Virus record (IMG/VR): IMGVR_UViG_2565956620_000001 | Location: 1 to 31,985 of that record | Origin: a virus | Taxonomy: Duplodnaviria > Heunggongvirae > Uroviricota > Caudoviricetes | Reading direction: 5' to 3' (one strand) | DNA length: 31,985 nt | Shown here: positions 2,231 to 25,435 of the stretch, piece after piece | Position numbering within the stretch: position 1 is the stretch's first letter | How the letters are laid out: every line of letters begins with the position of its first letter | Notes under the pieces: generated by a model | Told to the model about the DNA's origin: nothing | The model's input: the letters and a program-made list of their open reading frames with translations, nothing else | Database searches by the model: none | Program-made: the position numbers and the translations under genes

Positions 2231-2347
2231 GTCGTTATTCCTTGTGTTACGAACTACTTGCTTACATTTGGAGTGAAAGCAATTGGATAGTACCACAAGA
2301 CCATGCGCCGGACATGGCTAAAAACCGGCTCTGTTTCAGGAGGAGTT

Positions 2348-2518
2348 ATGCAGGAACCTCGTTGTATTGCTCAGTTATTGCGTAACGAAAGCCCCAGGGC
2401 GATTGACTTCACCATCACCCACGGGAAGGGACGCAAGGGAATCATTATCCGCACCAAAAAACAGAGTCCGTTAAAGAAGGCTCTGACCTTTCTGAAAAGC
2501 CGGAGGGTCTGGAAATGA
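2348..2518 (+). CDS. Hypothetical basic small protein (56 aa)
   Basis: AGGAGG RBS before ATG at 2348; stop overlaps the B start. Confidence 0.5.
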   Translation: MQEPRCIAQLLRNESPRAIDFTITHGKGRKGIIIRTKKQSPLKKALTFLKSRRVWK

Positions 2519-3015
2519 CAGTGATGACGCTCAATCTCGTTGAAAAACAGCCAGCAGCTATGCGCCGGATAATTGGCAAGCATCTTGCCGTCCCTCGCTG
2601 GCAGGATACATGTGATTATTATAATCAGATGATGGAGCGCGAACGGCTAACGGTTTGCTTTCATGCACAGTTAAAACAGCGTCACGCAACGATGCGTTTT
2701 GAAGAAATGAACGACGTCGAACGTGAACGACTGGTATGTGCAATTGATGAATTGCGTGGCGCATTCTCAAAACGCCGTCAGGTTGGCGCAAGTGAGCATG
2801 CATATATTAGTTTTTTAACAGTCAGTCAGCGTCGTACTTTATTTATGCACGCCGGATTGACAGAAAAAGAATTTAATCAGCCATACTGGCGAATTAATGA
2901 AGAGTCATGTTACTGGCGTGATGCTTTATTCCGTGCATTACGTGAATTATTCAGCCTGTTTGAGTATGCACCGACAATTCTGACGTCGGTAAAACCAGAG
3001 CAATATCTGCATTAA
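2515..3015 (+). CDS. B: Replication protein B-like (166 aa)
   Basis: Position upstream of A and length equal to P2 gpB as I recall; start overlaps the upstream stop. Confidence 0.6.
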   Translation: MTVMTLNLVEKQPAAMRRIIGKHLAVPRWQDTCDYYNQMMERERLTVCFHAQLKQRHATMRFEEMNDVERERLVCAIDELRGAFSKRRQVGASEHAYISFLTVSQRRTLFMHAGLTEKEFNQPYWRINEESCYWRDALFRALRELFSLFEYAPTILTSVKPEQYLH

Positions 3016-3078
3016 GTAATTAACCAGAGTTTTTAACGCACTTAATTGTGCGGGGCTTCTTTTTGCCTGGAGAAAGTC

Positions 3079-3303
3079 ATGCATACAGTTTCTGAAAATC
3101 AGTGCGGTATATACGCATTACTGCTGCAACAGGCCAGAACCGAAGCACAGGCCGACGCTGCGACGCGCTTTTCTTCTCATCTTGATGCCATGATTCGCCA
3201 CATCACAAAGGCGGAGTTATCCCGCGTGGAGATAGTCGAGCTGCTCAGTCAGGAGTCGGAAAAATTTCACAATATCGGATTGTCTCGCGGGGAGGTGCTT
3301 TGA
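3079..3303 (+). CDS. Hypothetical protein (74 aa)
   Basis: GGAGAAAG RBS before ATG at 3079. Confidence 0.45.
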
Positions 3304-3602
3304 TGTCCTGTTCTCATTCAGTTGTATTACTGAATAACGCCTTAAAAATCGCCGTTATGAAAAATGGCGATTTGTCTCTTATTCAACTTTGTCTTGATAA
3401 AGAAAAACGCGACATCACTGAATCTGTTATCGCGATTTATCAGAATGAATTAAACCTCCTGTCTGATGTGGTCAATTTACTTGTTAAACGCGCTGTATTC
3501 CACAAGCAAATTTCCTCAGTGGATGAACTGACAAAATTAACGACAGAACTTGCCAGTTATTGCGCTGATGTATCCAGGAAACTTAACGATAAAAGGAGCT
3601 GA
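3303..3602 (+). CDS. Hypothetical protein (99 aa), AT-rich
   Basis: GGAGG RBS; ATG overlaps the upstream TGA (TGATG). Confidence 0.5.
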   Translation: MSCSHSVVLLNNALKIAVMKNGDLSLIQLCLDKEKRDITESVIAIYQNELNLLSDVVNLLVKRAVFHKQISSVDELTKLTTELASYCADVSRKLNDKRS

Positions 3603-3604
3603 TA

Positions 3605-3829
3605 ATGCCGGACAACGTAGATTTTATTCAGGAACAACAGGCTGAATTACTGGAGCGCCAGATTAACGCGGCAAGGGTAAAACATTGCGGTGCTTCTGCG
3701 CTGGTTTGCGAAGAGTGTGACGCGCCAATACCTGCTGCCCGTCGTGCGGCTTATCCGTCAGCCACGCGTTGTGTTTCCTGCCAGTCAGTCTTTGAAGCAA
3801 AAAACAAGCATTACCGGAGAATGGCATGA
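3605..3829 (+). CDS. TraR/DksA-family C4 zinc-finger protein (74 aa)
   Basis: CEEC-x17-CVSC spacing typical of TraR/DksA zinc fingers; AAGGAG RBS. Confidence 0.7.
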   Translation: MPDNVDFIQEQQAELLERQINAARVKHCGASALVCEECDAPIPAARRAAYPSATRCVSCQSVFEAKNKHYRRMA

Positions 3830-4101
3830 GTATTCGTATTGAAATTGGCGAACGTTATGTCGTTACCAGTGACAGCTTTCAGTTTATTCTCCACGAGAAA
3901 AAGAGAGCGGAAAGCGGTAAAAACGCCGGTCAGGAATGGCTGGCGGTGGTTGGTTATTATCCGAAATTAAGCCAGCTCGTTTCCGGCCTGATGCATCACG
4001 ATATTCTGACCGGAAGCGCAAAGTCTTTTGCTGATTTAAACGCGCAGGTTGAGCAACTCAGCAGGCGTTGTTCAGAGGCTTTTGGCTCATATGGCCGTTA
4101 A
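3826..4101 (+). CDS. Hypothetical protein (91 aa)
   Basis: ATGA overlap with the upstream gene; GGAG RBS. Confidence 0.5.
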   Translation: MSIRIEIGERYVVTSDSFQFILHEKKRAESGKNAGQEWLAVVGYYPKLSQLVSGLMHHDILTGSAKSFADLNAQVEQLSRRCSEAFGSYGR

Positions 4102-6385
4102 AGCCTCCGGGCGTTTTGTCCCTCCTTCAGCATTTGCTGCAGGCACCGGTAAGGCGTTTACCGGTGCTTATGCATGGAACGCGCCACGCGAGGCCGTCGG
4201 GCGCGAAAGACCCCTTACACGTGACGAGATGCGTCAGGTGCAAGGTGTTTTATCCACGATTAACCGCCTGCCTTACTTTTTGCGTTCGCTGTTTACTTCA
4301 CGCTATGACTACATCCGGCGCAATAAAAGCCCGGTGCACGGGTTTTATTTCCTCACATCCACTTTTCAGCGTCGTTTATGGCCGCGCATTGAGCGCGTGA
4401 ATCAGCGCCATGAAATGAACACCGACGCGTCGTTGCTGTTTCTGGCAGAGCGTGACCATTATGCGCGTCTGCCGGGGATGAATGATAAGGAGCTGAAAAA
4501 GTTTGCCGCCCGTATTTCATCGCAGCTTTTCATGATGTATGAGGAACTCTGCGATGCCTGGGTGGATGCGCATGGCGAAAAAGAATCGCTGTTTACGGAT
4601 GAGGCGCAGGCTCACCTCTATGGTCATGTTGCTGGCGCTGCACGTGCTTTCAATATTTCCCCTCTCTACTGGAAAAAATACCGTAAAGGACAGATGACCA
4701 CGAGGCAGGCATATTCTGCCATTGCCCGTCTGTTTAACGATGAGTGGTGGATTAGTCAGCTTAAAGGCCAGCGTATGCGCTGGCATGAAGCGTTACTGAT
4801 AGCTGTCGGGGAGGTCAATAAAGACCGTTCTCCTTATGCCAGTAAACACGCCATTCGTGATGTGCGTGCGCGCCGCCAGGCAAATCTGGAATTTCTTAAA
4901 TCGTGTGACCTTGAAAACAGGGAAACCGGCGAACGCATCGACCTTATCAGTAAGGTGATGGGCAGTATTTCTAATCCTGAAATTCGCCGGATGGAGCTGA
5001 TGAACACCATTGCCGGTATTGAGCGTTACGCCGCCGCAGAGGGTGATGTGGGGATGTTTATCACGCTGACCGCGCCGTCAAAGTATCACCCGACACGTCA
5101 GGTCGGAAAAGGCGAAAGAAAAACCGTCCAGCTTAATCACGGCTGGAATGATGAGGCATTTAATCCAAAGGATGCGCAGCGTTATCTCTGCCGTATCTGG
5201 AGCCTGATGCGCACGGCATTCAAGGATAATGATTTACAGGTCTACGGTTTGCGTGTCGTCGAGCCACACCACGACGGAACGCCGCACTGGCATATGATGC
5301 TTTTTTGTAATCCACGCCAGCGTAACCAGATTATCGAAATCATGCGTCGCTATGCGCTCAAAGAGGATGGTGACGAAAGAGGAGCCGCGCGAAACCGTTT
5401 TCAGGCAAAACACCTTAACCGGGGCGGTGCTGCGGGATATATCGCGAAATACATCTCAAAAAACATCGATGGCTATGCACTGGATGGTCAGCTCGATAAC
5501 GATACCGGCAGGCCGCTGAAAGACACAGCGGCGGCTGTTACCGCATGGGCGTCAACGTGGCGCATACCACAATTTAAAACGGTTGGCCTGCCGACAATGG
5601 GGGCTTACCGTGAACTACGCAAATTGCCTCGCGGCGTCAGCATTGCTGATGAGTTTGACGAGCGCGTCGAGGCTGCACGCGCCGCCGCAGACAGTGGTGA
5701 TTTTGCGTTGTATATCCGCGCGCAGGGTGGGGCAAATGTCCCGCGCGATTGTCAGACTGTCAGGGTCGCCCGTAGCCCGTCGGATGACGTTAACGAGTAC
5801 GAGGAAGAGGTCGAGAGAGTGGTCGGCATTTACGCACCGCATCTCGGCGCGCGTCATATTCATATCACCAGAACGACGGAGTGGCGCATTGTGCCGAAAG
5901 TTCCGGTCGTTGAGCCTTTGACTTTAAAAAGCGGCATCGCCGCGCCTCGGAGTCCTGTCAATAACTGTGGAAAGCTCACCGGTGGTGATACTTCGTTACC
6001 GGCTCCCACACCTTCTGAGCACGCCGCAGCAGTGCTTAATCTGGTTGATGACGGTGTTATTGAATGGAATGAACCGGAGGTCGTGAGGGCGCTCAGGGGC
6101 GCACTAAAATACGACCTGAGAACGCCAAACCGTCAGCAAAGAAACGGAAGCCCGTTAAAACCACATGAAATTGCACCATCGGCCAGACTGACCCGGTCGG
6201 AAAGAATGCAAATCACCCGTATCCGCGTTGACCTTGCTCAGAACGGTATCAGGCCGCAGCGATGGGAGCTTGAGGCGCTGGCGCGTGGGGCAACCGTAAA
6301 TTATGACGGGAAACATTTCACTTATCAGGTCGCTGATGAGTGGCTTGGATTTCCTTCTGTTGATTTTTTTGATTGTGGTGCTTGA
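4091..6385 (+). CDS. A: Rolling-circle replication initiator gpA (HUH endonuclease, 764 aa)
   Basis: HUH motif PHWHMMLF (codons about 5282..5305); YIAKYISK with tyrosines at codons 450 and 454 counted from ATG 4091, matching the P2 A active-site numbering as I recall it. Confidence 0.9.
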   Translation: MAVKASGRFVPPSAFAAGTGKAFTGAYAWNAPREAVGRERPLTRDEMRQVQGVLSTINRLPYFLRSLFTSRYDYIRRNKSPVHGFYFLTSTFQRRLWPRIERVNQRHEMNTDASLLFLAERDHYARLPGMNDKELKKFAARISSQLFMMYEELCDAWVDAHGEKESLFTDEAQAHLYGHVAGAARAFNISPLYWKKYRKGQMTTRQAYSAIARLFNDEWWISQLKGQRMRWHEALLIAVGEVNKDRSPYASKHAIRDVRARRQANLEFLKSCDLENRETGERIDLISKVMGSISNPEIRRMELMNTIAGIERYAAAEGDVGMFITLTAPSKYHPTRQVGKGERKTVQLNHGWNDEAFNPKDAQRYLCRIWSLMRTAFKDNDLQVYGLRVVEPHHDGTPHWHMMLFCNPRQRNQIIEIMRRYALKEDGDERGAARNRFQAKHLNRGGAAGYIAKYISKNIDGYALDGQLDNDTGRPLKDTAAAVTAWASTWRIPQFKTVGLPTMGAYRELRKLPRGVSIADEFDERVEAARAAADSGDFALYIRAQGGANVPRDCQTVRVARSPSDDVNEYEEEVERVVGIYAPHLGARHIHITRTTEWRIVPKVPVVEPLTLKSGIAAPRSPVNNCGKLTGGDTSLPAPTPSEHAAAVLNLVDDGVIEWNEPEVVRALRGALKYDLRTPNRQQRNGSPLKPHEIAPSARLTRSERMQITRIRVDLAQNGIRPQRWELEALARGATVNYDGKHFTYQVADEWLGFPSVDFFDCGA

Positions 6386-6461
6386 GTTTACAATCAGTTA
6401 ATAAACGGTAGGATTGTATGCAGTTAAAACAGAATAGTATAAGACCGCTGTAGGCTTTGGC

Positions 6462-6491
6462 TTGTCTAGCATCGACAGCAAAAGCTATCAT
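6462..6491 (+). promoter_or_regulatory. Possible sigma70 promoter for the cargo operon: TTGTCT (6462..6467), 18 bp, TATCAT (6486..6491)
   Basis: Hexamer match only, in the 196-bp A-to-cargo spacer. Confidence 0.25.
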
Positions 6492-6581
6492 GGAAAAACT
6501 AGCTGTTGTATGTTAGGTGTGCAGAAACGAGAGTAGGGTTGAGCACTGTTGCATTCCAGAATTTAGGGGAGGGGTAAACAT

Positions 6582-7757
6582 ATGAAAAAAAACTCGGTAG
6601 GTGTGGAGGATAAATTAAAACATAAAGCAGTTCAATATATTAATATTGAAGATCTGGAGCTTGATGTTGAAAACCCCCGCTTTGGTGAAGACTCTTCTTC
6701 ATCTGATACACAAGTTGATGTGCTGAATAATATTGTTAAAAATTATGGCGTTACTGATGTAATAAGTTCTATTGCAGTGAATGGTTATTTTTCTGCTGAG
6801 CCAATGGTGGTGAGGAAAAATAATAATAAGAAATTCACTGTAATGGAAGGTAATAGAAGGCTGGCTGCCTGTCTTATACTTAAAAATGATGACAGAGCAA
6901 GAGATCAAGTTAATCTGCATCAACAGTATATTGATAAATACAATTCTCATGGGTGCCCTAAAATAGACCCAGTTCCAGCAATAGTTTTTGAAGACGATGA
7001 TGGTGTAGATAAAAAATCACTTATATCATATTTAGGTGTGAGGCATATCGTATCTACAAAGGATTGGGATTCATACGCTAAGGCTGCATGGATATCTCGA
7101 ACCATCAAGGAAGGAGATATGAGCGTATCTGATATTTCCACTATGATTGGTGACCGTAATAGCACTATAAAAAGACTTTTGTCTGGATATAATTTCATTA
7201 AACAAATGGAGTCTGCTGGGAAGTATAATAAAGATGATAGTGTGAAGAAAGGGAGAGGGAGCAATACTAGTTATCCATTCTCGTGGGTTTATACATTGCT
7301 GAGTTATAAGAGTATTCAGGATTTTGTGGGCTTATCAGATAATCCTACAGACCCTAATCCAATAGATGAAAAGAAATTGGATAATGCGAAGCTTCTAATG
7401 ACAGCTATGTTTGGTAATAAAAATAAAGGACAAAACTCACAAGTTAAAGACTCTCGTAATCTTGGTGTCTTGGCTGAGATAGTTGCTTCTCCAGAAAAAG
7501 TTATACTGCTCAAGCAAGGCAAGGATGTTGAAGACATTAATGACCTAACTCAGCCAATCGGCGATAGGTTGACTAGTTTAATGTTAGAAATTAGAAGTAA
7601 ATTGGACGAATGTCTTACGAGGGTAGGGCGTGAAGATTTACCAATGCAGGATGCTATTCAACTTAATATATATCTTGAGCAAATAAGTAAACAATTTAGA
7701 TCTTTTAGAGTATCAATTAATGAGGCTATTACTGGAAGTGATAGTGAGGGTTTTTAA
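6582..7757 (+). CDS. ParB/sulfiredoxin-like N-terminal domain protein (391 aa), hotspot cargo
   Basis: GGGGAGGGG RBS; N-terminal signature IEDLELDVENPR ... SIAVNGYFSAEPMVV ... FTVMEGNRRLAA (GNRR at 6849..6860) typical of the ParB N-terminal fold; AT-rich. Confidence 0.7.
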   Translation: MKKNSVGVEDKLKHKAVQYINIEDLELDVENPRFGEDSSSSDTQVDVLNNIVKNYGVTDVISSIAVNGYFSAEPMVVRKNNNKKFTVMEGNRRLAACLILKNDDRARDQVNLHQQYIDKYNSHGCPKIDPVPAIVFEDDDGVDKKSLISYLGVRHIVSTKDWDSYAKAAWISRTIKEGDMSVSDISTMIGDRNSTIKRLLSGYNFIKQMESAGKYNKDDSVKKGRGSNTSYPFSWVYTLLSYKSIQDFVGLSDNPTDPNPIDEKKLDNAKLLMTAMFGNKNKGQNSQVKDSRNLGVLAEIVASPEKVILLKQGKDVEDINDLTQPIGDRLTSLMLEIRSKLDECLTRVGREDLPMQDAIQLNIYLEQISKQFRSFRVSINEAITGSDSEGF

Positions 7758-7759
7758 TT

Positions 7760-8716
7760 GTGAATTATGGTTTACGCTCTAAAATGCAGGGATTCGCAAC
7801 AGATGCGGATCAAGCAGAATTTAATGCATTACTTGATGTTAGCGCGACAATAGACTCAGGAATTGAGGATGATAAAATTGCTGGAACTATCTATGATGAG
7901 TTAGAAAATTTAGATGGTCATTTGGAAGAAGAATGGATGATGGAAGATCAGGGAAAGGAGCTTTTAGTTGGTCAGATTGCCGAGCATATACAATGGAGAG
8001 CAAAGGTTTTGGATGATATGTATCCATTTGAATATAAAGAAAATCATCTAACATTAAAGGAGTCTCCTTCCCTTGTTTATCTGTTTTGCTTATGTGTCTC
8101 TGTAATTAATAATTTAACAAAAGGAGATAATGTTAAGTTGCCTAGATTTTTTGAAGTTATGGCTGGGCGATTATTCACAAAATTTTTTAGTTCACACGCA
8201 AAACACATGCATACTGGTTGGCCTCGTTCAAATGGAAATCCTAGTAGTTATAAGGAACTAGCTTATAAACTGAACTCTTCGATCTCACCAAATACAAGAG
8301 AATGGTCTTGGCGCGTAGAGAATGGCTTAAGAGATGAGGATGCATTGAGAATTAAAGATTGTGGTGTGGATTTTGTTACATGGGTTGATTTTTTGGATGG
8401 TAGAGATGGACGTTTATTTGCTTTAGGGCAATGCGCTTGTGGTAATGATTGGCCAACAAAGTTTCAGGATATTAAAATTGAAAGGTTAACACCATGGTTT
8501 CATCCATTAACTTACATTAAGTGTGTTAAAGTTTTCTCAACACCTTATGTGTTAGTTGATGAAATGATAAGAGAAGCAAGCGCAGAAGCTGGAATTATAT
8601 TTGATCGAGTCCGTTTAACTATTGCATATGAGCGTTTTAAGGATGAATTTGGTGATATGCAGGATGAGTTAGATGCGTTAATTACCTTTTGTAAAGAATT
8701 AAAAAAGGCCCAGTGA
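7760..8716 (+). CDS. Hypothetical protein (318 aa), coupled partner of the ParB-like gene
   Basis: GTG start 3 nt after the upstream stop with GTGAGGG upstream; same AT-rich composition; no motif I can recognise. Confidence 0.55.
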   Translation: MNYGLRSKMQGFATDADQAEFNALLDVSATIDSGIEDDKIAGTIYDELENLDGHLEEEWMMEDQGKELLVGQIAEHIQWRAKVLDDMYPFEYKENHLTLKESPSLVYLFCLCVSVINNLTKGDNVKLPRFFEVMAGRLFTKFFSSHAKHMHTGWPRSNGNPSSYKELAYKLNSSISPNTREWSWRVENGLRDEDALRIKDCGVDFVTWVDFLDGRDGRLFALGQCACGNDWPTKFQDIKIERLTPWFHPLTYIKCVKVFSTPYVLVDEMIREASAEAGIIFDRVRLTIAYERFKDEFGDMQDELDALITFCKELKKAQ

Positions 8717-8722
8717 TGGGCC
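8701..8722 (-). terminator. Hairpin GGCCCA-gtga-TGGGCC followed by a T6 run on the minus strand; terminator between convergent genes
   Basis: Stem 8707..8712 / 8717..8722 spans both stop codons; A6 at 8701..8706 is a T-run for the minus-strand transcript. Confidence 0.5.
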
Positions 8723-8723
8723 A

Positions 8724-9707
8724 TTACCATATATCAGGGATGTTTCTCACAACCGCTTCAAACAAAGGTGGTGGAACTGCATTACCTACGACCTTATATC
8801 TCTCTTTTAACATCCGTGCGGCCCCAAAACTATCCATGTCAGGAAAAGTTAGATAACCACCATGATTGGTATATTCTTTACTAAACCCTTGCAGAATCGC
8901 CGCTTCTTTATAAGAGAAGCGTCTGGCTGGCGAGTTTGTTATAAACTCCCACTTGTCTATACCCACTTTTTTTAATTCGGGGCTGATGGGATGCAAGGGA
9001 ATATGACGAAGATTACTTACGATAGTTTTACTAACTTCGTCCCAGTTGCGGCGTCTATTCCTAGATAAATAGTACCAGTGAAATGGGTCATCACAAAACT
9101 CACCGATTGGCCATTCAGGTAATCCCTTTAGTGCTTCACCGATTGTTACATAAGGTAATGATTTTTCCTCACCATGTGTGGCTTCAGGGAATTTATATTC
9201 TAGGTCGAAGTCGTTACGAATACCTACAATTATTAATCTCTTACGCTCTTGCGGTACACCGTAGTGGTGAGCTTTGAGTATATTCCAAACAACTTTATAG
9301 CCTATATTACCAGCATTGGAGAAGCGTTTTATTTGATCATCGAGTAGATGCTTAAATGTACTATTTCTCATACCTGAAACATTTTCGACAATAAATGCTT
9401 TAGGTTGAATATTGGTTAATGCACGTGCAAACTCTTTATATAAAAAATTTATACTCCTGTCCGCAAGACGTGCGCCACCTTGGCTAAATCCTTGGCATGG
9501 ATAGCATCCAACAAGAAGGTCTGCACTCGGAAATTTTTCAACTTCTCGGATATCTTGGATTAGGTAATCTGTTTCTGGTAGGTTTGCGAGATAAACCTCT
9601 CTCGCATATGGCAAAATATCGTTTGCCATAACGATGTCGAAACCAGCTTTGCTTAATCCAGCATCGGAACCACCACAACCCGAGAACAATGATACAGCTT
9701 TTGGCAT
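8724..9707 (-). CDS. C5-cytosine DNA methyltransferase (327 aa)
   Basis: Motif I FSGCGG, motif IV PCQ (Cys codon 9497..9495), motif VI ENV, motif VIII QERKR, C-terminal GNAV; ATG at 9707 with GGGGGAG RBS preferred over the TTG at 9731. Confidence 0.85.
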   Translation of the reverse strand: MPKAVSLFSGCGGSDAGLSKAGFDIVMANDILPYAREVYLANLPETDYLIQDIREVEKFPSADLLVGCYPCQGFSQGGARLADRSINFLYKEFARALTNIQPKAFIVENVSGMRNSTFKHLLDDQIKRFSNAGNIGYKVVWNILKAHHYGVPQERKRLIIVGIRNDFDLEYKFPEATHGEEKSLPYVTIGEALKGLPEWPIGEFCDDPFHWYYLSRNRRRNWDEVSKTIVSNLRHIPLHPISPELKKVGIDKWEFITNSPARRFSYKEAAILQGFSKEYTNHGGYLTFPDMDSFGAARMLKERYKVVGNAVPPPLFEAVVRNIPDIW

Positions 9708-9914
9708 TTTCTCCCCCTGATAAACCGGCAAGAGTATAGCTTTTTATATGGCTACTGCATACATCATCCTTATAAATGGCAGTTTCTGGTGTATGCATGG
9801 ACGTGAATTTTTTTGCATGCATTAGCTTTACTTATTTGAAGTATTGTCCGTGACGTCTGGCGCGCTTCCAACGTATTCATGAAACTGCATTAAAAGCGCC
9901 CCATGAAGCGGGCG

Positions 9915-10102: not shown

Positions 10103-11137
10103 TCAGCCGTTGTCAGTGTCCAGTGAGTAGTTTTTAAAGCGGATGACCTCCTGACCGAGCCAGCCGTTTATCTCGCGGATCCTGTCCTGTAACGGGATAA
10201 GCTCATTGCGGACAAAGACCTTTGCCACTTTCTCAATATCACCCAGAGACCCGACGTTTTCCGGCTTGCCGCCCATCAACTGAAAGGGGATGCGGTGCGC
10301 ATCCAGCAGGTCAACGGCGCTGGCTTTTTTGATATTAAAAAAATCGTCCTTCGTCGCCACTTCACTGAGCGGGATAATTTTAATGCCGTCGGCTTTCCCC
10401 TGTGGGGCATAGAGAAACAGGTTTTTAAAGTTATTGCGGCCTTTCGACTTCACCATGTTTTCGCGAAGCATTTCGATATCGTTGCGGTCCTGCACGGCAT
10501 CGGTGACGTACATGATGTATCCGGCATGCGCGCCGTTTTCGTAATACTTGCGGCGGAACAGCGTGGCCGACTCATTCAGCCAGGCAGAGTTAAGGGCGCT
10601 GAGATATTCCGGCAGGCCGTACAGCTCCTGATTAATATCCGGCTCCAGCAGGTGAAACACGGAACCGGGCGCGAAAGGTGTCGGCTCGTTGAAGGACGGC
10701 ACCCACCAGTAAACATCCTCCTCCACGCCACGGCGGGTATATTTTGCCGGTGAGGTTTCCAGTCTGATGATCTTACCGGTGGTGCTGTAACGCTTTTCCA
10801 GAAACGCATTACCGAACACCAGAAAATCCAGCACAAAGCGGCTGAAATCCTGTTGCGAAAGCCACGGATGCGGGATAAATGTCGAGGCCAGAATATTGCG
10901 TTTAACGTAAATCGGTGAGCTGTGATGCACGGCAGCACGCAGGCTTTTCGCCAGACCGGTAAAGCTGACCGGCGGCTCATACCATCTGCCGTTACTGATG
11001 CACTCGACGTAATCCAGAATGTCACGGCGGTCGAGTACCGGCACCGGCTCACCAAAGGTGAATGCCTCCATTTTCGGGGCGCTGGCGGTCATTTTTTTTG
11101 CCGCAGGTTGCGGTGTTTTCCCTTTTTTCTTGCTCAT
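10103..11137 (-). CDS. Q: Portal protein (344 aa)
   Basis: Synteny, P2-like length, ATGA overlap with the P stop. Confidence 0.85.
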   Translation of the reverse strand: MSKKKGKTPQPAAKKMTASAPKMEAFTFGEPVPVLDRRDILDYVECISNGRWYEPPVSFTGLAKSLRAAVHHSSPIYVKRNILASTFIPHPWLSQQDFSRFVLDFLVFGNAFLEKRYSTTGKIIRLETSPAKYTRRGVEEDVYWWVPSFNEPTPFAPGSVFHLLEPDINQELYGLPEYLSALNSAWLNESATLFRRKYYENGAHAGYIMYVTDAVQDRNDIEMLRENMVKSKGRNNFKNLFLYAPQGKADGIKIIPLSEVATKDDFFNIKKASAVDLLDAHRIPFQLMGGKPENVGSLGDIEKVAKVFVRNELIPLQDRIREINGWLGQEVIRFKNYSLDTDNG

Positions 11138-24022: not shown

Positions 24023-24152
24023 ATCGACTGTGTGGGAACAGGCAGGACGATTGCTGGCTGCGAGGGAATCACGTCAACGTGTGGCGCTGATTTTTGATAT
24101 TGACCTGTCCACGCTCTATAAAAAATTCGCCTCATCAGCGACAAAGAATAAA

Positions 24153-24180
24153 TTGTGCCATCCATCAGCCAACCGGGACA
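24153..24180 (+). promoter_or_regulatory. Late-promoter activator element upstream of FI: TTGTGCCATCCATCAGCCAACCGGGACA
   Basis: Close match to the P/O element; lies 65 bp upstream of the FI ATG. Confidence 0.45.
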
Positions 24181-24244
24181 AATAGCCTGACATCTCCGGC
24201 ACACATGAAAATACCACTCACCCATTAACCACGGAGTTAAACGG

Positions 24245-25435
24245 ATGAGCGACTATCATCATGGCGTGCAGGTGCTGGAGATTAACGACGGCACCCGCGT
24301 CATTTCCACTGTATCCACCGCCATTGTCGGCATGGTCTGCACGGCCAGCGATGCGGATGCGGAAACCTTCCCCCTCAATAAACCGGTGCTGATTACCAAT
24401 GTGCAGAGCGCAATTGCAAAGGCCGGTAAAAAAGGCACGCTGGCGGCGTCGTTACAGGCCATCGCTGACCAGTCAAAACCGGTCACCGTTGTTGTGCGCG
24501 TGGAAGACGGCACCGGCGACGACGAAGAAACGAAACTTGCGCAGACCGTTTCCAATATCATCGGCACCACCGACGAAAACGGTCAGTACACCGGACTGAA
24601 AGCCCTGCTGGCGGCGGAGTCGGTAACCGGTGTTAAACCGCGTATTCTCGGCGTGCCGGGACTGGATACCAAAGAGGTGGCTGTTGCACTGGCATCAGTC
24701 TGTCAGAAGCTGCGCGCTTTCGGGTATATCAGCGCATGGGGCTGTAAAACCATTTCTGAGGTGAAAGCCTACCGCCAGAATTTCAGCCAGCGTGAGCTGA
24801 TGGTCATCTGGCCGGATTTCCTCGCATGGGATACGGTCACCAGTACCACCGCCACCGCGTATGCCACTGCCCGTGCGCTGGGGCTGCGCGCTAAAATCGA
24901 CCAGGAGCAGGGCTGGCATAAAACGCTGTCCAACGTTGGGGTGAACGGTGTTACCGGCATCAGTGCATCTGTATTCTGGGATTTGCAGGAGTCCGGCACC
25001 GATGCTGACCTGCTTAACGAGTCAGGCGTCACTACGCTGATTCGCCGCGACGGTTTCCGCTTCTGGGGTAACCGTACCTGCTCTGATGACCCGCTGTTCC
25101 TCTTTGAAAACTACACCCGCACCGCGCAGGTGCTGGCCGACACGATGGCTGAGGCGCACATGTGGGCGGTGGACAAGCCCATCACCGCAACGCTGATTCG
25201 CGACATCGTTGACGGTATCAATGCCAAATTCCGTGAGCTGAAAACAAACGGCTATATCGTGGATGCGACCTGCTGGTTCAGCGAAGAATCCAACGATGCG
25301 GAAACCCTCAAGGCCGGAAAACTGTATATCGACTACGACTATACACCGGTGCCTCCTCTCGAAAACCTGACCCTGCGCCAGCGTATTACCGATAAATACC
25401 TGGCAAATCTGGTCACCTCGGTTAACAGCAATTAA
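24245..25435 (+). CDS. FI: Contractile tail sheath protein (396 aa)
   Basis: Synteny and P2-like length; GGAG RBS. Confidence 0.9.
   Translation: MSDYHHGVQVLEINDGTRVISTVSTAIVGMVCTASDADAETFPLNKPVLITNVQSAIAKAGKKGTLAASLQAIADQSKPVTVVVRVEDGTGDDEETKLAQTVSNIIGTTDENGQYTGLKALLAAESVTGVKPRILGVPGLDTKEVAVALASVCQKLRAFGYISAWGCKTISEVKAYRQNFSQRELMVIWPDFLAWDTVTSTTATAYATARALGLRAKIDQEQGWHKTLSNVGVNGVTGISASVFWDLQESGTDADLLNESGVTTLIRRDGFRFWGNRTCSDDPLFLFENYTRTAQVLADTMAEAHMWAVDKPITATLIRDIVDGINAKFRELKTNGYIVDATCWFSEESNDAETLKAGKLYIDYDYTPVPPLENLTLRQRITDKYLANLVTSVNSN

Follow-up and report, generated by a model that had tools for sequence, protein, structure and literature searches.

A ParB-type protein, a predicted PD-(D/E)xK nuclease and a C5 methyltransferase as a candidate restriction-modification-like cassette of a P2-like prophage

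The window, the whole stretch of 31,985 nucleotides that was analysed (IMG/VR record IMGVR_UViG_2565956620_000001), comprises a complete P2-like prophage located between cpxP and fieF of Escherichia coli. The genes of the replication endonuclease gpA and the portal protein Q form the boundaries of P2 hotspot #1, and the interval from gpA to Q is a defence hotspot of P2 (PMC9519451, PMC9122126). Three cargo genes, here called A, B and M, occupy the interval, with A in the first position (Table 1). The cargo has a GC content of 36%, compared to ~55% in the flanks, and its acquisition as one horizontally transferred cassette is the best explanation. Of 5,426 complete E. coli genomes, 37 contain the identical cassette, in every case as part of the chromosome.

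The 391-residue reading frame of A is a real gene, present in RefSeq at the same coordinates (WP_000742296.1), and its ATG start codon is preceded by a GGAGG-type ribosome-binding site. One RefSeq record labels the protein 'ParB/RepB/Spo0J family partition protein'. The leader of the cassette contains sigma-70-like sites, which are candidates only, since such matches are no commoner there than in shuffled sequence. Translation of B begins at a GTG codon 3 nt after the stop codon of A, and the GAGGG ribosome-binding site of B is embedded in the end of A. The gene M is convergent with A and B. An upstream TTG at position 9731 is also open as a start codon of M. The candidate terminator of M is positioned directly after the M stop codon, inside the 3' end of B.

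Table 1 Features of the A-B-M cassette and its flanks, in window coordinates.
Feature	Position	Strand	Remarks
P2 gpA replication endonuclease, left flank	4091..6385	+	Pfam Phage_GPA E 2e-123; RefSeq
Cassette leader	6386..6581	+	Intergenic, downstream of gpA
Candidate sigma-70-like sites	6387-6414, 6462-6491	+	Within the leader of the cassette
Ribosome-binding site of A	~7 nt before ATG	+	GGGGAGGGG
Gene A	6582-7757	+	391 aa; WP_000742296.1
ParB/Srx (ParB-CTPase-type) N-terminal domain of A	6630..7061	+	Residues ~17-160
Box I-like motif, D28-x-x-N31-P32-R33	6663..6680	+	LDVENPRF; aligns with NPYQPR of Spo0J
Box II / P-motif, E89-G90-N91-R92-R93	6846..6860	+	Includes GNRR
Box III-equivalent, S149-Y-L-G-V-R-H155	7026..7046	+	
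Helix-turn-helix of A	7119..7214	+	Residues ~180-211; predicted secondary structure, Foldseek, hhalign
Family-specific all-alpha domain of A	7227..7754	+	Residues ~216-391
Gene B, predicted PD-(D/E)xK nuclease	7760..8716	+	318 aa; WP_001469928.1, annotated 'hypothetical'
Putative active site of B	8153..8461	+	E132 8153-8155, D204 8369-8371, Q224 8429-8431, K234 8459-8461
Candidate terminator of M	8707..8722	-	GC-rich hairpin followed by TTTTTT
Gene M, C5 cytosine DNA methyltransferase	8724..9707	-	WP_001123601.1; convergent with A-B
P2 portal protein Q, right flank	10103..11137	-	

Protein A is composed of a ParB/Srx-type N-terminal domain, a helix-turn-helix, and an all-α-helical C-terminal domain. 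The AlphaFold2 model of A, built on 52 homologues, has a pLDDT of 86.5 and a pTM of 0.75. A preliminary description of the gene had proposed domain assignment by Foldseek as a check of the fold, and each of the best 27 PDB hits of the model is a two-domain fragment of CTP-binding ParB, Noc, KorB or Spo0J, with the N-terminal domain as well as the helix-turn-helix. Aligned lengths range from 170 to 300 columns and are mostly 250-300. The helix-turn-helix in the model is formed by helices of residues 182-189 and 195-211, connected by a turn with the invariant G190. For comparison by hhalign we used a manually entered B. subtilis Spo0J sequence. LDVENPRF of A pairs with NPYQPR of box I, EGNRRLAA with GERRFRAA, VPAIV with an identical VPAIV, and residues 180-211 with the helix-turn-helix of ParB. 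The matches of A to general ParB profiles are below threshold, both for Pfam ParB_N (E 0.034, 14.6 bits against a cut-off of 26.3) and for TIGR00180 (28.4 bits against a cut-off of 58.45), and profile searches of A and of B against PDB sequences returned nothing meaningful. The PADLOC models PD-Lambda-5_A match residues 17-173 of A with an E of 3e-19, which is not a full-length match of the profile, as it covers only positions 4-161 of 466.

The sequence EGNRRL is encoded at 6846-6863, as checked by translation, and its E89-G90-N91-R92-R93 part does not vary among 52 close and 57 distant relatives. Residues that stay constant down to 22-28% identity are D28, N31, R33, E89-G90-N91-R92-R93, H155, W162, K167 and G190. 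As judged from the alignments, the residues invariant in the superfamily are those of the putative nucleotide-pocket motifs and of the helix-turn-helix turn. The ParB/sulfiredoxin-type N-terminal domain with an arginine pair, as claimed in the preliminary description, is corroborated by the model, by Foldseek and by the invariance of EGNRR, and the GNRR motif is encoded at precisely the 6849..6860 given there. The same description had set the domain beside both partition ParB and the DndB and GmrSD proteins. The fold is closer to that of ParB, Noc and KorB than to that of DndB or GmrSD; A carries EGNRR in place of DGQQR and has no DUF262 or DndB match in Pfam at E<=0.1.

The E-N hydrolysis dyad of ParB box III is replaced in A by the invariant S149-Y150, according to the alignment with the manually entered Spo0J. 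The replacement suggests that any hydrolysis by A would differ from that of ParB. Protein A may bind an NTP without hydrolysing it, or may use another nucleotide. The NTP specificity of the ParB-CTPase fold is not predictable from sequence, as stated in a 2025 PNAS survey (PMC12704722).

Residues ~216-391 of A form eight confidently modelled helices, which end in a long hairpin of helices 326-350 and 355-384. Searches with this domain gave no convincing fold or profile match and no HEPN signature, and the all-helical C-terminal half of A has no match to HNH/DUF1524 or other nucleases. The earlier statement that the C-terminal ~290 residues carry no assignable motif holds for residues ~216-391, and gives way to the helix-turn-helix at residues ~180-211. 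In the predicted structure, ~210 residues of A are similar to canonical ParB, and ~175 residues constitute the family-specific helical domain.

Structure prediction assigns B to the restriction-endonuclease PD-(D/E)xK fold. The fold is visible only by structure prediction, since scans of B, of its homologue gp96 from coliphage Wphi, and of remote B' proteins against Pfam, NCBIfam and PADLOC found no match. In structure comparison, the catalytic domain of B is most like the non-specific cleavage modules of FokI, MspJI and BspD6I. Cleavage domains of this type need a partner for DNA recognition. The resemblance of B to MspJI and AspBHI is limited to the catalytic domain, and no SRA-like reader domain was found in B. 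The putative active-site residues E132, D204, Q224, which sits in a QCACG motif, and K234 are invariant or nearly so across the B superfamily. In a distant homologue of B, from a locus that we call L165, the canonical position reads Q-C-K and K234 is missing. The change of the lysine reads as a compensatory relocation, and supports the assignment of the PD-(D/E)xK site in B.

The compact protein M matches Pfam DNA_methylase with an E of 5e-59, and aligns over its full length with M.HaeIII (E 7e-35). Its catalytic motifs I, IV, VI, VIII and X are all present, as FSGCGG, PCQ, ENV, QERKR and GNAVPP, respectively. The locus displays two features of a Type II restriction-modification system, namely a methyltransferase with intact motifs and an adjacent restriction-fold nuclease with a conserved active site.

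Full-length members of the A family have ~370-400 residues. A word-indexed search yielded 1330 hits, and the family has 477, 1658 and 3853 representatives at E<=1e-30, 1e-10 and 1e-3, respectively. Counted as clusters at 50% identity, it includes at least 477 at E<=1e-30, from five or more phyla. The family is also spread over many P2-like phages. The mean column identity is 41% for A and 34% for B. The PADLOC candidate PDC-M38A (715 aa) was considered as a possible fusion of A and B, as A-like proteins match its first ~350 positions; B does not match it.

The neighborhood of A and B was examined in three independent samplings, across which their pairing is near-obligate. The first comprised 80 species-representative genomes found through A, from Pseudomonadota, Acidobacteriota, Bacteroidota, Planctomycetota and Verrucomicrobiota. 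The gene B is directly downstream of A in 72 of the 76 loci with room for it, and in at least 58 of 67 genomes the pair has a closely related C5 methyltransferase as its neighbour, in a downstream-convergent, downstream-codirectional or upstream arrangement. Several further genome loci have a more distant C5 methyltransferase nearby. The second sampling comprised 75 metagenome loci found through B, with adjacency scored on 60; A is directly upstream of the nuclease gene in 55 of them. The coupling in metagenome loci holds even in a remote subfamily, A'-B', at 22-26% identity, which has no adjacent methyltransferase. In the third sampling, of IMG/VR viral contigs found through A, B follows A in all 73 contigs, and 69 of the 73 loci contain a methyltransferase (45 of C5 class and 24 of Dam/D12 class). 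A C5 or Dam-class methyltransferase is thus present beside A-B in ~87-95% of loci.

The same trio of genes exists outside any P2 phage, in Sphingomonas, Alcanivorax and an acidobacterium. One of these loci adjoins an integrase, and another adjoins a Type I restriction-modification system. In a set of 110 genes flanking 28 loci, the families that recur most are ResIII, Vsr, HsdM, other DNA methylases, and Gabija GajA, with Vsr accompanying the cassette in three of the 28 loci. The helix-turn-helix of A, the nuclease B, and the target-recognition region of M are all well conserved across the main clade, which predicts a single shared target sequence. The comparison of the three does not discriminate which subunit reads the site.

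We propose, with a probability of roughly 0.6, that A, B and M work together against phages, as a restriction-modification-like system of three components borne in the hotspot of the P2 prophage. That the cassette is a restriction-modification-like defence module of some kind we hold with considerable confidence; that A and B share the work in the particular way outlined here is an even bet. According to our proposal, M would methylate cytosines at C5 within one short target sequence of host and prophage DNA, and the methylation would serve as the mark of self. Protein A would bind DNA through its helix-turn-helix, and its putative nucleotide pocket, formed by DxxNPR and EGNRR, would work as an NTP-dependent switch, by analogy with clamp closure in ParB and KorB or with activation in SspE and GmrSD. 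Protein B, probably produced in a fixed ratio with A from the adjoining gene, would be recruited or licensed by A and would cut unmethylated incoming DNA. The folds, motifs, gene coupling, methyltransferase linkage and homology to protein A of PD-lambda-5 are results of the computation; the contact between A and B, the site-reading subunit, the identity of the nucleotide, and the cleavage are inferred.

Linkage to methyltransferases of two unrelated classes, one of which also occurs as a fusion with an A-like module, is expected if methylation is the antidote to the nuclease. The size of B counts against our proposal, because 318 residues are enough for a self-sufficient Type IIP enzyme; the near-obligate coupling of A and B (72/76, 55/60 and 73/73) argues against B being sufficient alone. 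The remote A'-B' loci without a methyltransferase indicate that the A-B pair can exist outside classic restriction-modification logic. A more detailed picture, which we offer as a tentative speculation, is that A is a nucleotide-gated clamp of the ParB type. It would load at unmethylated sites, close, and slide or spread along DNA upon binding NTP, possibly CTP, carrying or licensing B.

The strongest competing explanation, which we nevertheless consider unlikely, is that B and M constitute an orthodox Type II pair, and that A is a transcriptional controller similar to KorB or to a C protein, which times the production of the nuclease after entry into a new cell. However, A exceeds a C protein about fourfold in size, is more conserved than the nuclease that it would control, and has nucleotide-pocket motifs as its invariant residues. 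In PD-lambda-5, the module homologous to A belongs to the only protein that is not a methyltransferase, which places the module in the effector arm. Furthermore, the A'-B' pairs persist without a methyltransferase, and the closest structural matches of B are the non-specific cleavage domains that need a partner.

Less probable still is an A-B nuclease activated by a trigger or dependent on DNA modification, of the abortive-infection or Type IV kind, accompanied by an M that acts independently, for example by protecting the phage genome from host restriction; site methylation would then not hold the nuclease in check. The remote clade of A'-B' pairs lacking a methyltransferase fits such a nuclease. 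However, methyltransferases from two unrelated classes are adjacent in 87-95% of the loci, and one is fused to an A-like module in L165. The likeness of B to the modification-dependent enzymes MspJI and AspBHI stops at the catalytic domain, with no SRA-like domain detected, and the presence of Vsr in 3/28 loci is consistent with genome-wide self-methylation.

That A is a centromere-binding ParB for the maintenance or segregation of the prophage or the host chromosome is barely credible. In its favour, the order of the N-terminal domain and helix-turn-helix is that of canonical ParB, and one RefSeq record names A a partition protein. Against it, no ParA gene occurs anywhere in the window of 32 kb or beside the homologues that we inspected, the segment 6300-10150 has no parS-like repeat and only short two-copy repeats at chance level, the N-terminus MKKNSVGVEDKLKHK... 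lacks the ParA-activating motif LG[KR]G[LFI], and the E-N dyad of box III in the manually entered Spo0J is S149-Y150 in A. The scores fail to reach the cut-offs of TIGR00180 and Pfam, P2 has no need of partition as a phage that integrates into the chromosome, and the constant partner of A is a nuclease and not an ATPase. The preliminary description had doubted a partition role, pointing to the missing ParA and parS array and to a defence hotspot, and on each of these points our analysis agrees with it. It viewed A alone; the meaning of A comes from its partners B and M, with which it forms a conserved restriction-modification-like module.

The ParB-CTPase fold is best known as a switch of bacterial DNA segregation. 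Many orphan ParB-like proteins with unknown roles are encoded by prophages, as documented in the 2025 survey (PMC12704722). We found no description of the A-B-M triad in the literature, including that survey. The association with a nuclease and a DNA methyltransferase provides a concrete genetic context for a large orphan ParB-like family, and a testable case for a restriction system built on a ParB-type nucleotide switch. It also links the family to PD-lambda-5, a validated but mechanistically unexplained system, and offers an explanation for the unannotated genes orf98, orf96 and mth of phage Wphi. The annotation of A as a 'partition protein' in some records, and of B as 'hypothetical', would be corrected. 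The PADLOC library that we searched has no model of B, and its models therefore cannot recognise the triad as a system. If A is a sliding clamp as speculated above, the cassette would represent a new mechanistic class of restriction enzymes, which use a ParB switch instead of a helicase or AAA+ motor for long-range surveillance.

Several known systems share parts of the organization of the cassette. R.BspD6I is a heterodimer of a large DNA-recognising subunit and a small catalytic subunit, without a ParB-like or NTP-binding component. Restriction-modification systems of the CglI and NgoAVII type are NTP-dependent Type II systems made of three proteins, M, R and N, with a C5 methyltransferase and a separate NTPase needed for cleavage. 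Their R protein is a PLD-family nuclease with a B3 DNA-binding domain, and their N protein is a helicase-like ATPase of superfamily 2. They are a precedent for a Type II-like enzyme of three components, and have only the three-component logic with a C5 methyltransferase in common with A-B-M, whose nuclease is of the PD-(D/E)xK type and whose putative NTPase has the ParB fold. In the DUF262 branch, which includes GmrSD, SspE, DndB and Menshen NsnA, an NTPase of the ParB fold senses DNA and controls a nuclease (PMC12065111, PMC13251355). Proteins of this branch contain DGQQR or DGQHR motifs, a different DNA-binding domain, and usually a fused HNH/DUF1524 nuclease, whereas A has EGNRR, a ParB-type helix-turn-helix, and a PD-(D/E)xK nuclease supplied in trans. 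Protein A shares with ParB/Spo0J, Noc and KorB the N-terminal nucleotide-binding domain followed by a helix-turn-helix, and retains boxes I and II. It differs from canonical ParB in having no ParA, parS or ParA-activating peptide, in the S-Y of box III, in its C-terminal domain, and in its obligate partner, which is a nuclease.

The closest characterized relative is PD-lambda-5, a prophage-borne system of two genes, which encode a ParB/HEPN protein and a methyltransferase (Vassallo et al. 2022, PMC9519451). It was isolated by functional selection, provides broad protection against phages, and required an mrr-deleted host for cloning (PMC9519451). Residues 20-277 of A align with residues 13-264 of the 485 residues of PD-lambda-5 A (superfamily profile, hhalign 98.5%, E 2.5e-15), so that the N-terminal domain, the helix-turn-helix and the linker helices are common to both proteins, corresponding to the first ~260 residues of A. 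Both systems are prophage cargo, and both pair the ParB-type protein with a DNA methyltransferase, which is a C5-cytosine enzyme in the A cassette and a Dam-class D12 enzyme (MethyltransfD12) in PD-lambda-5. PD-lambda-5 A is longer, with ~470-500 residues, and its C-terminal ~220 residues, which carry a weak HEPN/DUF4145 signal, are absent from A. The cassette instead combines a helical tail of smaller size with a PD-(D/E)xK nuclease encoded separately, by the conserved third gene B, while PD-lambda-5 has two genes and no separate nuclease.

The two systems are joined physically in L165. This locus contains a genuine PD-Lambda-5_A gene (E 2e-165) and a Dam methyltransferase (PD-Lambda-5_B, E 4e-100) fused to an A-like module in a polypeptide of 663 residues. 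A B-like gene (hhalign 98%) comes after the fusion gene, so that PD-lambda-5 and the A-B system have a single methyltransferase in common. A RADAR system is located next door.

The genes orf98, orf96 and mth of coliphage Wphi are a diverged copy of A-B-M, in the same gene order and in the same P2 hotspot. Wphi gp98 is homologous to A over the full length (hhalign 99.9%), with the C-terminal domain kept up to residue ~369. Wphi gp96 is a homologue of B (hhalign 97.3%) with the motifs GDGGxD...QCxC...K retained, and mth encodes a cytosine methylase. The records of gp98 and gp96 carry no annotated function, and we found none in the literature. The identity of the Wphi triad to the A cassette is only ~27%, which puts it in a different subfamily. 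The same triad is present, again in this hotspot, in the Yersinia phages L-413C and HQ103, in vB_EcoM-12474, and in the P2-like Pseudomonas phage D14A. The best reading of A-B-M is that of a PD-lambda-5 relative, a widespread ParB-based three-gene cassette of restriction-modification-like character. If A is indeed a nucleotide-gated clamp, PD-lambda-5 and the Wphi genes orf98, orf96 and mth would be variants of the same class.

The predicted PD-(D/E)xK nuclease B, encoded next to the ParB-like protein A, contains a QCACG motif. Residues Q224 and C225 of the motif are invariant throughout the B superfamily. C227 is invariant within the main clade and common, without being universal, beyond it. 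The cysteines of the motif are positioned on the same strand as the putative catalytic glutamine and may serve in metal binding, in redox chemistry or in structure. The part of the cassette encoding A and B (window 6500–8500) has a low GC content of 36% and an unusually high positive GC skew of 0.25–0.30, versus about 0.05 in the remaining prophage. The C5 cytosine methyltransferase gene M converges on the A-B pair. Since the hairpin and T-run at the M stop codon are located inside the 3′ end of B, the converging transcripts would either run into each other or end only a few bases apart.

Coordinates of features of the cassette, the surrounding prophage and homologous loci
Feature	Position	Strand	Details
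gpA replication gene start	window 4091		
QCACG motif of B	window 8429–8443		B residues 224–228
GC-rich hairpin and T-run	window 8707–8722	-	directly 3′ of the M stop codon, inside the final codons of the convergent gene B
Insertion in M, EYTNHGGYLTFPDMDSFGAARML	window 8809–8877		residues ~277–299, ~23 aa, separating motif IX from motif X
Two adjoining pseudogene fragments	window 24066–24311		RefSeq annotation; after the tail-fibre assembly gene
A′-B′ loci	L151:2617–4792; L155:2075–4256; L156:2620–4792; also L147–L150		remote subfamily of the A-B pair
L165, single metagenomic locus	L165:1012–9457		PD-lambda-5 A, then Dam methyltransferase/A-like fusion, then B-like nuclease, then RADAR

The insertion in M is present in the enterobacterial methyltransferase and missing from nearly all 60 homologues of other taxa. 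Genes of the very-short-patch repair endonuclease Vsr adjoin the cassette in three of the 28 homologous loci (flanks of L006–L047, alignment A3), which is consistent with active genome-wide formation of 5-methylcytosine by M.

Of the 20 complete E. coli chromosome records listed, at least 14 have the cassette at record positions 2310–5810; their deposited sequence therefore starts precisely with the first nucleotide of the gpA gene of the prophage. It looks as if genome-rotation software mistook P2 gpA for a replication-start gene. Elsewhere in the prophage, the two pseudogene fragments correspond to a C-terminal piece of a tail-fibre assembly gene, on the minus strand, and a piece encoding an HTH domain. 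Together they resemble what is left of a tail-fibre segment that could invert, or of the invertase of such a segment.

The remote A′-B′ subfamily scores 110–145 bits against the A profile, and its B proteins share 22–26% identity with B. The overlapping gene pair is retained, and an adjacent methyltransferase is absent from the loci of this subfamily (L147–L151, L155 and L156). Among their neighbors are genes for NA37/NdpA-like nucleoid proteins, at two loci, and for an Mrr_cat restriction enzyme, together with one AbiC-like gene, one HD-domain gene and an integrase. The A′-B′ pair may represent a methylation-independent or Type IV-like version of the A-B pair.

The first ~340–355 positions of PDC-M38A (PADLOC model PDLC04607), a 715-aa candidate defense protein, are matched by A-like proteins. 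Because its length is close to the 709 aa of A and B combined, PDC-M38A may be a natural A-nuclease fusion. At L165, protein P0277 (663 aa) combines a Dam methyltransferase and an A-like module in one polypeptide, and the RADAR system is composed of an RdrA-like gene and a gene for an adenosine deaminase. At this locus, one methyltransferase appears to serve two restriction arms that are both ParB-based.
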